In this document: one piece after another, positions 38,879 through 42,297 of the stretch | How the letters are laid out: each line of letters opens with the position of its first letter | Numbering within the stretch: the first letter of the stretch is position 1 | Source: an uncultured Chloroflexia bacterium | GTDB taxonomy: Bacteria; Chloroflexota; Anaerolineae; Anaerolineales; UBA4823 | Direction: 5' to 3' | Length of the DNA: 64,000 nucleotides | NCBI GenBank assembly: GCA_963725685.1 | Contig: CAVRYZ010000006.1 | Location: forward strand, 10,684-74,683 | The notes under the pieces: model-generated | The model's input: only the letters and a program-made list of their open reading frames with translations | Databases searched by the model: none | What the model was told of the DNA's origin: nothing | Program-made: the position numbers and the translations under genes

Positions 38879-39295
38879 TCATGCATCTTTTATTGTATAT
38901 TTAAGCTCAATTTTACTGGCCTTACTGAGCATGGCTTGTACCGGGCAGTATTTTGTGGATGATAGTTCGATGCAACGTTCGACTGCTTTAGGCTCGACAT
39001 GGTGCCCTTCAATGAGATACTCAATGATGATATTAGTATACACTTTAGGGAATTTTGTTGCTCGGTCTGCGTGCACCTGGACTTCGAAAGCAGTCACATC
39101 CTGACGTTTCTTTTGGAGCAGTGAGATCACGTCCATCCCTGTGCAGCCTGCCAGGGCGATGGCAATCAGCTCCATGGGTTCAAAGCTTTCATTGTCACCT
39201 CCAGCAGCAGTTTCGGTACTTAAAGGGATGGTGATACCATTTAACCCAGTACTGGTAAATGAGAGTCTGTTCTTCCAAATTACTTTCGCTTCCAT
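38879..39295 (-). CDS. OsmC family protein
   Basis: PMEL...LAGCTGMDV and KYCPV. Confidence 0.92.
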   Translation of the reverse strand: MEAKVIWKNRLSFTSTGLNGITIPLSTETAAGGDNESFEPMELIAIALAGCTGMDVISLLQKKRQDVTAFEVQVHADRATKFPKVYTNIIIEYLIEGHHVEPKAVERCIELSSTKYCPVQAMLSKASKIELKYTIKDA

Positions 39296-39303
39296 ATTTT
39301 ATT

Positions 39304-39870
39304 TTACTCCAATAACGGAGTCAGATATTTTTCCAACATTTCCATGCTGATTGGACCCGTCCAGGCTAAGACCACATTTCCGTTATGATCGATCACGTAT
39401 GAGCTGGGCAAGCTGTCATTATGAAAAGAAATCAATGACTTATTGTTGGGGTCCAGCAGGATCGGAAAGGTGAGTCTATATTCATCGACGAATTTAGCCA
39501 CATCCCTGGCAGGATCACCTGCATCAATTCCGAACAACATAAAACCATGATCCGAATGGGCCTGGTAGTACTTCTGCAATGTAGGCATCTCCGCCTTGCA
39601 GGGTGGGCACCAGGTAGCCCAGTTGTTGATCAGGACGATGTCTTGGCGGTAATCAGATATGTTAATTACATTACCTTTCAGGTCGTTTAATTTTAACTCA
39701 GGTACCGGAAAATTCACCACGGACGGGACGACCGAAATCTCTTTGGTTAAGTTCCCGCTAGTGATCACCTTTGCCGAGACTAATCCAAGGATGATCAGTC
39801 CCAGACCGATTATGGCCAGCGGGATTAATTTATGCGCTTTTGCCTTTTGCTGATTGGTGGATTGATCCAT
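39304..39870 (-). CDS. TlpA/ResA-like membrane thiol-disulfide oxidoreductase
   Basis: TM anchor, NNWATWCPPCKAEMP. Confidence 0.93.
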   Translation of the reverse strand: MDQSTNQQKAKAHKLIPLAIIGLGLIILGLVSAKVITSGNLTKEISVVPSVVNFPVPELKLNDLKGNVINISDYRQDIVLINNWATWCPPCKAEMPTLQKYYQAHSDHGFMLFGIDAGDPARDVAKFVDEYRLTFPILLDPNNKSLISFHNDSLPSSYVIDHNGNVVLAWTGPISMEMLEKYLTPLLE

Positions 39871-39875
39871 CAGAG

Positions 39876-40559
39876 TTAGTTAGCTGTATGTATATGCATC
39901 GTACGCGCTAATTCTTTTACCATGTATTCCTCAAGAACAGCACCTAATATTACTCCTTCACCATCATTAATATTTGTTTGTGGGACGCTGCTGACATTAT
40001 ATCGCAAGGAAATTTCGTAAAACTCGTTGGCCTCGATCATTTCTGCCTGGATTAATGGATTCTCCATGGCCATCTGATGTGCAAGCACCACGGCTTGTGG
40101 ACAATAGGGTCAAGTGGGGGTGACAAAAACTTTTAAAAGAACCGGGGTCCGTATATCCCTTAAGTTGAGACGGGTATCAGGTTTCAAACCCGAATCGCGT
40201 TTTGACACCAGCTCGATCGCGTGGATCAGCGAACCGAATTCGTATCCCGAAGGGAGTCCAGCAAAGCGTACACCGTAATCCAATAGTTCGTCCCGATCAC
40301 GGCTGGCAATAACCAACCCGGGGATGAGACTCACGTTGAATTTTTGGGCGAGCTGCTGGTGATCGTGAATATTATAATGATGGAGACTTAACTTATCTGA
40401 TAATGAGCACAGCTCTTCCAATAATTGCCTGGTCTCAGCGTATGATTCGTCTTCGTTTTGGTTTGTAAAGAATATAATTTCTACCGGATATAGTAAGCGG
40501 GTTTCAAATAAAAGCTTGATCTGTTTTATCAGCTCAGCATTGAGCAGTTTTTCAGGCAT
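39876..40559 (-). CDS. protein-disulfide oxidoreductase (AhpF N-terminal-domain-like), predicted selenoprotein with Sec at TGA 40110-40112
   Basis: Two track ORFs are in frame across a single TGA: VFVTPT-U-PYCPQAVVLAHQMA...; GLPSGYEF and YNVSSVP motifs. Confidence 0.85.
40082..40097 (-). promoter_or_regulatory. candidate bacterial SECIS hairpin
   Basis: CAAGC-CGTGGT-GCTTG stem-loop beginning 12 nt after the UGA. Confidence 0.55.
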
Positions 40560-40719: not shown

Positions 40720-42297
40720 ATGAAGACGTCGCGGACAAGGCGTGGTAATTACTCTAAGCGTATCACCAGGGTGTGCATATTCACTCTGGGTATTTTGGTA
40801 TTCCTGGGATTGTTACTGCTCCCATTCGCGGAATCAATTGCCCAGCTGAATCTAAATCGCTATCTACCGGTGATTTTAAATAATGCCAACCCCGGACCGA
40901 CTGATACCTTCACTCCTACGGGTACATTGCCGTCACCGACTATAACGAACACGTTTGGACCATCCCCCACCCATACATTAACCCCTTCTCCAACGTTTAC
41001 CGGCACAATCACCCCTGTACCTTCCATCACCATTTCGGTCTCTCCAGTTGCAGGAGCGAAGGTAGACGAGGTCTTAACCTTTACGATTACGGTAAAAAAT
41101 AGTGGCACCAGTCCAACCCATAACAACATGGTCGTTGACAGTTTCGGAGTATCTTACATCGACGTGACTGACGTTACGACCACAAAAGGCACGGTGGTCA
41201 AACAGACGCGTCAATTCATCGTTACGATTGGGGACGTGTTTCCGGGTGAGATCGTGACAATCATTGCCAAAGTAAAGATTAATGCATCGCTTCCCACCAC
41301 CACAACAACCAACACCAACACGGTAACTTTAACCTACGATACTGGAGCGTCAAAACAAGCCAGCGTTGCATACAAAGTTATCGCTTCAACCTTACCCGCC
41401 ACAGGTGAGCTGCCATTGAATTGGCGTGAGGAAAAGGTAAAACCCCTTGCTTTACTACCGGGGATCATTATCATGGCATTAGGTGGAGTCTCTCTATTTT
41501 TGGTGCTATGGTGGGCGAAAGCACGCGACCCGAAAATAAAGCTGTGGTTGACCGTTGGGGGCGCCTTATTGATTTTGATTGGTTTCGCGGTTGGTTTAAC
41601 AGGTTCCGGTCTGATAAGCCCAATCCAGCAGGCTCAACAATTCATGATGACTCCTACTGCAGATGAAATCATTGCACAGGGTCTACCTTCTGCGACCGTT
41701 TTACCTTATCGTCCAGCCTCAGCATTTTCAACACCGGATAACGTTTTGCCAATTGTGCCTTACGTGACCCTTCCGAATTATCCGATTCCAACACCTGAAA
41801 TCACGGTCACACCACAACCTGGCGAACTCGGACCTGATACGAGTGCGATCATGCGGATTGTCATTCCAGTCATTCAGCTGGATACTGAAGTCAAATATGT
41901 GCCATATGATGGCTTTACCTGGTTGATCACTGGACTGAGACAGGAAGTTGCCTGGATGGGAAACACCTCCTGGCCAGGGTTGGGAAGTAATACCAGCCTG
42001 GCTGGTCACATAACCGTCGCGGGGATGGGCGATGGACCATTCCGCCATCTGGACGCTCTGCCAAACGGTGAGCTGGTGATGTTGTACACGGAGAAGAATA
42101 TATACACCTATCAGGTGCGCGAGAGCAAGGTGACCGATGATGGTGATATGTCAGTCATACTTCCATCCGATAATCCCCAGATTTCGATGATCACATGTGT
42201 AGATTGGGACCAGGAAACACGAACCTATTTGAACCGGCTGGTGGTTTTTGCTGACCTGGTGCGGACAGATCCGATCAGCATCGGTTATGCACCATAA
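40720..42297 (+). CDS. fusion of DUF11-like surface domain with LPxTG signal to a class F-like sortase
   Basis: Signal peptide; LTFTITVKNSG; LPATG + TM + basic loop + TM; LAGH...MITC...NR sortase triad. Confidence 0.85.
   Translation: MKTSRTRRGNYSKRITRVCIFTLGILVFLGLLLLPFAESIAQLNLNRYLPVILNNANPGPTDTFTPTGTLPSPTITNTFGPSPTHTLTPSPTFTGTITPVPSITISVSPVAGAKVDEVLTFTITVKNSGTSPTHNNMVVDSFGVSYIDVTDVTTTKGTVVKQTRQFIVTIGDVFPGEIVTIIAKVKINASLPTTTTTNTNTVTLTYDTGASKQASVAYKVIASTLPATGELPLNWREEKVKPLALLPGIIIMALGGVSLFLVLWWAKARDPKIKLWLTVGGALLILIGFAVGLTGSGLISPIQQAQQFMMTPTADEIIAQGLPSATVLPYRPASAFSTPDNVLPIVPYVTLPNYPIPTPEITVTPQPGELGPDTSAIMRIVIPVIQLDTEVKYVPYDGFTWLITGLRQEVAWMGNTSWPGLGSNTSLAGHITVAGMGDGPFRHLDALPNGELVMLYTEKNIYTYQVRESKVTDDGDMSVILPSDNPQISMITCVDWDQETRTYLNRLVVFADLVRTDPISIGYAP

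Follow-up and report, generated by a model that had tools for sequence, protein, structure and literature searches.

When a TGA codon lies inside an otherwise uninterrupted bacterial reading frame, should it be taken as a stop or as selenocysteine (Sec)? This question is raised by a locus in a 64,000-nucleotide stretch of DNA (the window, at its full length) from an uncultured Chloroflexia bacterium (assembly GCA_963725685.1, contig CAVRYZ010000006.1, positions 10,684 to 74,683), in which a gene on the minus strand carries a TGA at codon 150. According to an earlier reading of the same DNA (the original prediction), this gene encodes a Sec-containing UxxC oxidoreductase, with a selenocysteine insertion sequence (SECIS) hairpin 3' of the UGA. 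That central idea is supported by (i) the conservation of the TGA among homologues; (ii) the conservation of the hairpin; and (iii) the presence of selA, selB and selD in the genome. As judged from sequence comparison, the window gene is very probably (about 93%) a selenoprotein gene, its product being a UxxC disulfide oxidoreductase in which UGA is read as Sec.

Reading frame and UGA codon

The frame begins with ATG at 40559, ends with TAA at 39878-39876 and contains 227 codons plus the stop. Codon 150 is TGA (40112-40110) and, once TGA is translated as U, its context reads K-V-F-V-T-P-T-U-P-Y-C-P-Q-A-V-V-L-A-H. Beyond the TGA, 77 sense codons follow before the TAA, and no other stop lies inside the frame. 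The original prediction had placed the TGA at the first cysteine (Cys) of a CPYC motif (V-T-P-T-TGA-P-Y-C) and had reported the same 77 codons; the counted frame agrees on both. The two features concerned are the following:

39876..40559, minus strand: predicted Sec-containing protein disulfide oxidoreductase (PDO) gene with two thioredoxin-fold units (TGA=U translation, TIGR02187.2, Pfam Thioredoxin_3, PDB 1A8L)
40110..40112, minus strand: UGA codon 150 at the first position of UPYC, predicted to encode selenocysteine (65 homologues with TGA, that of the window included; 15 with TGT/TGC)

Open reading frame (ORF) calling with table 11 cuts this frame into an ORF of 149 amino acids and another of 71, the latter started by GTG at 40091 (39876..40091). 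Hence, the description of the gene as a "hidden" selenoprotein is right as regards table 11 ORF calling, but not as regards the family, since TIGR02187 is a listed selenoprotein family whose model is named PDO_seleno_TRX. The GTG-started ORF of 71 codons is also what speaks for two separate polypeptides, that is, a 149-residue N-terminal thioredoxin-like unit and a 71-residue C-terminal piece translated from GTG 40091. Such a piece, however, would be devoid of the first beta strand and of both redox residues of the motif; the P-Y-C-P-Q-A stretch between TGA and GTG is conserved as coding sequence in all relatives; and the Cys forms of the protein are single proteins. The production of two polypeptides is, in consequence, extremely improbable.

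Protein family and redox sites

The translated protein scores 233.5 bits with NCBIfam TIGR02187.2 ("PDO_seleno_TRX", protein disulfide oxidoreductase), for which the curated cut-off is 185, and the match spans residues 10-218 and profile positions 4-207 of 209; it thus belongs to this family. The AhpF-type model TIGR03140 gives only 73 bits (cut-off 503), and Pfam Thioredoxin_3 covers residues 142-217. Among the sequences of solved structures, the best match is the PDO of Pyrococcus furiosus, 1A8L (E=4.8e-32, residues 12-201); the PDOs 1J08, 2YWM, 2AYT and 2HLS are matched as well, with 2YWM and 2AYT aligning to residues 5-211. The N-terminal domains of AhpF (1ZYN, 1HYU, 4O5Q) come behind the solved PDOs, at E values from 3.9e-11 to 1.4e-8. 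Two tandem thioredoxin folds within about 220-240 residues are therefore predicted, in likeness to the solved PDOs (two thioredoxin folds, about 226 residues).

At the C-terminal site, U150-P-Y-C153 lines up with the CPYC of 1A8L, and the surrounding FVTPTCPYCP of 1A8L is identical to the window stretch except for Sec in place of the first Cys. This motif takes the form C/U-P-[YHW]-C in 78 of the 80 homologues read, with R or S at the second position in the other two. While the solved PDOs use Cys and 1A8L has a second site, CQYC, the window protein has Sec at the C-terminal site and the following sequence at the N-terminal one:

40440..40451, minus strand: degenerate N-terminal redox site D37-E-S-Y40, no CxxC (aligned with CQYC of 1A8L)

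An N-terminal CxxC (CETC, CATC, CDYC and similar) is found in 18 of 20 intact close relatives, and the nearest relative (L018) keeps the first Cys alone. The claim that the N-terminal thioredoxin unit lacks its CxxC is thus right for the window copy. Since the second, N-terminal CxxC, which archaeal PDOs have and AhpF is not known to have, is variable in the TIGR02187 family, DESY is compatible with membership.

The N-terminal domain of AhpF also consists of two fused thioredoxin folds, and we take its redox motif to lie in the second fold alone, as in the window protein. But while AhpF carries an FAD/NAD(P)H reductase module in the same polypeptide, the window protein is free-standing and would need a separate reductase.

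Conservation of the TGA codon

For close relatives, 41 related genomes, counting that of the window, were searched in all six frames; 26 of them gave matches, near full length in 22. All 22 homologues were extracted and translated. TGA stands at the first Cys of the CxxC motif in 15 of them, namely the window gene, those of 12 genomes of the same genus (52-81% protein identity) and those of two genomes from other genera of the family; TGC or TGT is found at this codon in five, of which one belongs to the family and four to the order of the window's genome; the remaining two (L032 and L038) are broken genes. A wider sample of 401 Chloroflexota genomes, searched with TIGR02187 at E<=1e-30, provided 111 matches in 106 genomes, of which 52 hold exactly one TGA and 59 none. 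The codon was read in 50 of these 52 (the two left out being the window gene itself and the match in G265, a genome flagged as unpublished) and in 10 of the 59 Cys forms, hand-picked across the score range: TGA encodes the first residue of U-x-x-C in 50/50, and TGT or TGC stands there in 10/10.

Altogether, 65 Chloroflexota genomes (window included) have TGA, versus 15 sequences with TGT or TGC at the same codon; this is the Cys/TGA pairing for which the original prediction had proposed to look. The identical position of the codon in 15/22 close homologues and in 50/50 from the phylum sample is more than chance would give. The sequence beyond the TGA is conserved too: over the 60 codons that follow, the ratio of nonsynonymous to synonymous change (dN/dS) between the window and 10 Sec-form relatives is 0.03-0.11, with proportions of synonymous differences (pS) of 0.22-0.73; in three further Sec-form relatives (13 compared in all), synonymous sites are saturated over these codons. 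Such low values point to strong purifying selection on codons that would go untranslated if the TGA were a true stop.

These data bear directly on the possibility that the gene is a pseudogene in the window's genome, with a TGA due to nonsense mutation or to faulty assembly. It can be invoked because table 11 splits the frame into ORFs of 149 and 71 amino acids, because genuine PDO pseudogenes occur in two relatives of the same genus and because no tRNA-Sec was found in the assembly (see below). Nevertheless, the TGA is shared at the same codon with 64 other genomes, at 44-81% protein identity, the downstream dN/dS is 0.03-0.11 and the frame has no other stop. Conservation refutes this explanation for practical purposes, and a pseudogene is highly improbable. 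As for the two pseudogenes (L032 in G013 and L038 in G019), their decayed PDO frames are interrupted by TAG/TAA; L032 has T-S-T-S-P-Y-C at the motif, and L038 has lost it. In L042 (G003), only matches to a PDO remnant are seen.

On a quick protein tree of 80 sequences, Sec and Cys forms are intermingled: the tree requires at least 10 changes between them, five of which are forced by well-supported branches; for this count the tree was treated as unrooted, and Cys forms are under-sampled in it. One homologue, L021 (G011:C1:207133-207798), carries a second in-frame TGA where others have Leu (E-Q-L-U-G-E-L). It may represent an error, a recent nonsense mutation or another site of recoding.

Selenocysteine machinery

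The window's genome (3.31 Mb in 8 contigs) is 78.6% complete, and the contig to which the window belongs measures 78 kb. The genome contains selA (531 bits), selB (331 bits) and selD (361 bits), all above their cut-offs. The selD gene (L009, G000:C8:27161-28093) has itself one in-frame TGA (...S-S-C-A-G-U-A-S-K-L-N...), at what we take to be the catalytic position of Sec-type SelD. Since one of its own genes encodes a selenoprotein, the pathway of Sec synthesis in this genome depends on Sec. Moreover, the genome has two intact DsbA-like thiol oxidoreductase genes with TGA at the first position of U-P-Y-C. These are L201 (G000:C8:435763-436398; FSDYQUPYC) and L202 (G000:C5:333209-333829; YSDFQUPYC), which score 159.9 and 64.6 bits with NF041057, below its cut-off of 190.

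A global reassignment of TGA was considered and rejected: the adjacent OsmC gene ends on TGA, and so does the PDO gene of one relative (L026).

Candidate SECIS hairpin after the UGA

A 12-nt spacer, CCCUAUUGUCCA (40109-40098), separates the TGA from the sequence CAAGC (40097-40093), which is followed by the loop CGUGGU (40092-40087) and GCUUG (40086-40082):

40082..40097, minus strand: candidate bacterial SECIS hairpin CAAGC / CGUGGU / GCUUG (starts 12 nt after UGA; conserved, one compensatory pair)

The CAAGC/GCTTG hairpin that had been announced 12 nt downstream of the TGA is therefore where it was said to be, at 40097-40082. With positions counted from the U of UGA, columns 16-32 (CAAGCCGUGGUGCUUGC) do not differ among the 13 genus-level Sec forms with the exception of L023, whose loop has AC in the place of GU. 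The five synonymous third positions that fall within these columns are all fixed in the genus-level Sec forms, in contrast to the six nearest flanking ones, each of which varies. CGAGC...GCUCG is seen instead in six Sec forms at a greater distance (L034, L035, L053, L062, L066 and L074). At pair 17:30, 13 sequences thus have A-U and six have G-C, so that the hairpin is kept across the genus-level Sec forms and shows a compensatory change in the more distant ones. The helix is paired in 94.7% of 114 cells, and 0/500 shuffles reach either the observed covariation score or the observed percentage of pairing. Among the close relatives, the five Cys forms have varied codons at the hairpin positions, and the stem is not kept.

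For comparison, the bacterial SECIS consensus model (Zhang and Gladyshev, 2005) is summarised in the legend to Fig. 2 of PMC13188914, with an energy limit of -7.5 kcal/mol. Compared with the model in that legend, the candidate shows the following likenesses: (i) a stem of 5 bp (6 where the preceding codon is CCG); (ii) a loop of 6 nt; (iii) G at loop position 2, followed by U; and (iv) a spacing of 17 nt from UGA to the loop.

Evidence on the other side: hairpin energy and tRNA-Sec

Several observations weigh against Sec insertion at this codon, or against the role of this hairpin in it. Regarding folding, the hairpin alone reaches -5.0 kcal/mol, which is weaker than the limit of -7.5 in the model as summarised in the legend in PMC13188914. 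A region of 76 nt folds no better than its shuffles (z = 0.29; 114/200 shuffles at least as good). When applied to nt 4-45, the -7.5 kcal/mol limit is passed by 64/65 Sec forms, yet also by 14/15 Cys forms. For nt 10-42, the energy gap between Sec and Cys forms is small (-9.89 vs -8.04; Mann-Whitney p = 0.039, among kin that are not independent of one another). In addition, the 5' change of pair 17:30 is at the same time a Q-to-R replacement, and R is present in 11 of the 15 Cys forms read; the 13/6 split of this pair may have few events behind it.

There is, furthermore, a second hairpin that overlaps the first:

40069..40094, minus strand: alternative hairpin of 9 pairs with loop CUUGCA, mutually exclusive with the CAAGC hairpin (minimum free energy fold of nt 4-45 after UGA, -8.1 kcal/mol)

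This alternative (40094-40069) is equally compatible with the alignment: in the same 19 sequences, 95.3% of its cells are paired. However, all its changes are one-sided, shuffles do just as well, and G is absent from the beginning of its loop. CAAGC-CGUGGU-GCUUG is thus tentatively taken as the likelier SECIS of the two.

Regarding the tRNA, none of three methods found tRNA-Sec in the 78.6%-complete assembly. The best match to Rfam RF01852 (47.5 bits) is a tRNA-Ser, and the search, in which 150 of 376 candidates were scored, provided look-alikes of tRNA-Ser, Arg, Gly and Met only. ARAGORN, run on all 8 contigs, called 32 tRNAs, none of them SeC. Finally, blastn and tblastx with the 3-kb tRNA-Sec locus of the nearest relative recovered neither the tRNA nor its flanking genes from the assembly: blastn gave only three matches of 30-39 nt, some 1.3 kb from the tRNA, and tblastx nothing at 1e-10. 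Of the four genes for which the original prediction had proposed to look, selA, selB and selD were found, while selC was not found in the incomplete assembly but is present in all five relatives tested (RF01852 scores of 72.1-72.6 bits; ARAGORN call tRNA-SeC(tca)).

The failure of three methods to find selC also gives some ground to the view that this is a former selenoprotein gene in an organism which cannot decode it as Sec, either because selC was lost or because the UGA is decoded in some other way (for example as Cys or Trp by a near-cognate tRNA), with a truncated or altered product as the result. Against this, selA, selB and a Sec-type selD are intact, as are two more UPYC genes. Besides, in three relatives (tRNA-Sec loci L046, L047 and L048, in G011, G009 and G015) the genes for PDO and tRNA-Sec share one contig and one strand, with 126-131 kb between them, which suggests a stable chromosomal arrangement beyond the reach of the window's 78-kb contig. 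Since the flanking genes are missing too, the simplest reading of the absent selC is an unassembled region and not gene loss, and an organism unable to decode the UGA is very improbable. The combination that the original prediction had regarded as fatal to it, namely a genome without Sec machinery and no relative with TGA, did not occur: selA, selB and selD are present, and 64 other genomes carry the TGA.

Other putative SECIS designs in the family

Among the relatives of the window gene, at least two other hairpin designs occur, shifted in register. One of these, present in 34 Sec forms, is GGCCA-G[G/U]N-UGGCC, located five bases further 3', with 100% of 165 cells paired; its outer pair is GC (23), CG (4), GU (3), AU (2) or UG (1). 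Two further designs are (i) C[A/G]GGC-CGUGA-GCCUG, in eight Sec forms; and (ii) CAGCC-GUGC-GGCUG, in three. On the 80-sequence protein tree, hairpin types cluster by clade.

In one Cys form, L106 (G375:C74), the sequence of the second SECIS design, GCCGCCAGGTTGGCC, is still present after the TGT. Such a remnant would be expected after a recent replacement of Sec by Cys.

Gene neighbourhood and possible partners

Downstream of the PDO gene and on the same strand, two other genes follow at short distances (5 nt from the PDO stop to the first, 8 nt from the first to the second):

39304..39870, minus strand: TlpA/ResA-like AhpC-TSA/Redoxin protein, 188 residues, with N-terminal hydrophobic anchor and WCPPC (Pfam AhpC-TSA 1.6e-25, Redoxin 5.1e-19)
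38879..39295, minus strand: OsmC-family protein (putative hydroperoxide reductase), 138 residues, TGA stop (Pfam OsmC 2.6e-18)

The TlpA-like gene adjoins the PDO gene in 22/22 near-full-length loci, those with Cys forms included. OsmC comes after the TlpA-like gene in 19 of the 22; one locus ends too early to tell, and in two, L022 (G018) and L026 (G007), rho follows the TlpA-like gene directly and OsmC is missing from the cluster. Intact TlpA-like and OsmC genes still adjoin the decayed PDO in L032, L038 and L042. Given its conservation, the PDO-TlpA-OsmC cluster is probably transcribed as one unit. The promoter scan was uninformative (8 promoter-like sites vs 7.0 +/- 2.5 expected), and the terminator scan found five terminator-like sites, all of them on the plus strand and not on that of the PDO cluster.

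On the other side, divergent from the PDO gene, the window encodes a 525-residue protein (40720-42297, plus strand). It combines hydrophobic segments with a DUF11 repeat region and a stretch rich in Thr and Pro, and a sortase domain (Pfam Sortase 4.3e-20) occupies its C-terminal part. This gene adjoins PDO in many relatives of the genus.

The "redox relay" of PDO, TlpA and OsmC that had been proposed for this locus is seen here as a conserved, tightly spaced gene cluster only. No signal sequence is seen in the PDO, which should therefore be cytoplasmic. In the TlpA-like protein, basic residues precede the N-terminal hydrophobic segment, so that its redox domain should lie outside the membrane, where a cytoplasmic PDO could not reach it directly; a direct relay from PDO to TlpA would then need a transporter of the CcdA/DsbD type. 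Such a partner (PF02683) was not found in the incomplete assembly. By analogy, the OsmC-family peroxidase, which would be cytoplasmic, is a more plausible client of the PDO than the TlpA-like protein. As for the electron donor, the best candidate in the genome is the best match to a thioredoxin reductase (TIGR01292; G000 C5:904550-905437), with 227 bits against a cut-off of 343.

The proposed mechanism can be outlined in the following terms. The gene would encode a 227-residue cytoplasmic protein of the PDO/AhpF N-terminal domain family (TIGR02187), with U150-P-Y-C153, in the second fold, as its only redox motif, and Sec would be the attacking residue of this motif. During translation, SelB carrying Sec-tRNA(Sec) would bind a stem-loop in the mRNA, for which CAAGC-CGUGGU-GCUUG is the best candidate, and the UGA would be read as Sec and not as a stop. 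By analogy with known PDOs and with AhpF, a thioredoxin-reductase-like flavoprotein is probably what maintains the selenolate/thiol pair in its reduced state. Electrons would then probably be passed on to thiol peroxidases, the most likely client being the OsmC-family protein, presumably co-transcribed.

Relation to known selenoproteins and significance

The same family, with ABB15282.1 as example, is listed as "predicted with high confidence" in a table of PMC13188914, and the same row, again with ABB15282.1, stands in a table of PMC9312934; both papers cite Kryukov and Gladyshev (2004) for it. The tables of PMC1794560 (2006) give two family members, one in Carboxydothermus hydrogenoformans and one in Symbiobacterium thermophilum, and this paper ascribes three selenoprotein families to the Chloroflexi as of then. 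More recently, Chloroflexota genomes with 46-49 selenoproteins have been reported in the 2026 BSepDB database paper (PMC13326102). The search of the literature on Chloroflexi, Chloroflexota and Anaerolineae gave general selenoproteome papers and none devoted to the Sec-containing PDO of the phylum, which the BSepDB tables (PMC13326102) may list.

The window gene resembles the listed PDO selenoproteins in that it matches the same NCBIfam/TIGRFAM model over the cut-off and has one Sec per protein, at the first residue of UxxC; this likeness is drawn from the model score and the Sec position. It differs from the listed members in its host, an uncultured Anaerolineae-type member of the Chloroflexota, and in the loss of the N-terminal CxxC, which most relatives keep. 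Hence, the gene adds one more member to a selenoprotein family that had been recognised before, and the use of Sec in its phylum was likewise on record. As this selenoprotein family has been described since 2004, the case is one of missed annotation and not of a new kind of gene.

Little is new in kind, then, since the family, the position of Sec and the decoding mechanism had already been described. The added value is modest and concerns (i) the frequency of the Sec form in the phylum, where it is common (52 of the 111 family matches in the Chloroflexota sample); (ii) the variety of SECIS hairpins; and (iii) the conserved PDO-TlpA-OsmC neighbourhood. In practical terms, standard ORF calling splits the gene, so that the redox-active half of a conserved antioxidant gene is lost from Anaerolineae-type gene catalogues and, with TGA in 52/111 homologues, this annotation problem is systematic.

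The family also has some worth as a set of data for the study of how SECIS elements vary inside a single coding segment. A wider scenario can be put forward tentatively, and as a whole it is rather doubtful: the Sec form would be common, and possibly ancestral, in Chloroflexota; at least three SECIS designs that cannot be superimposed would have been placed on the same conserved codons, each in its own part of the tree; Sec and Cys would have been swapped repeatedly; and, in the window's lineage, selenium would be the sole redox centre of the PDO-TlpA-OsmC cluster, which may be a selenium-dependent module of hydroperoxide defence. If true, the family would constitute a natural series on how a SECIS element is remodelled while the encoded peptide stays nearly fixed.

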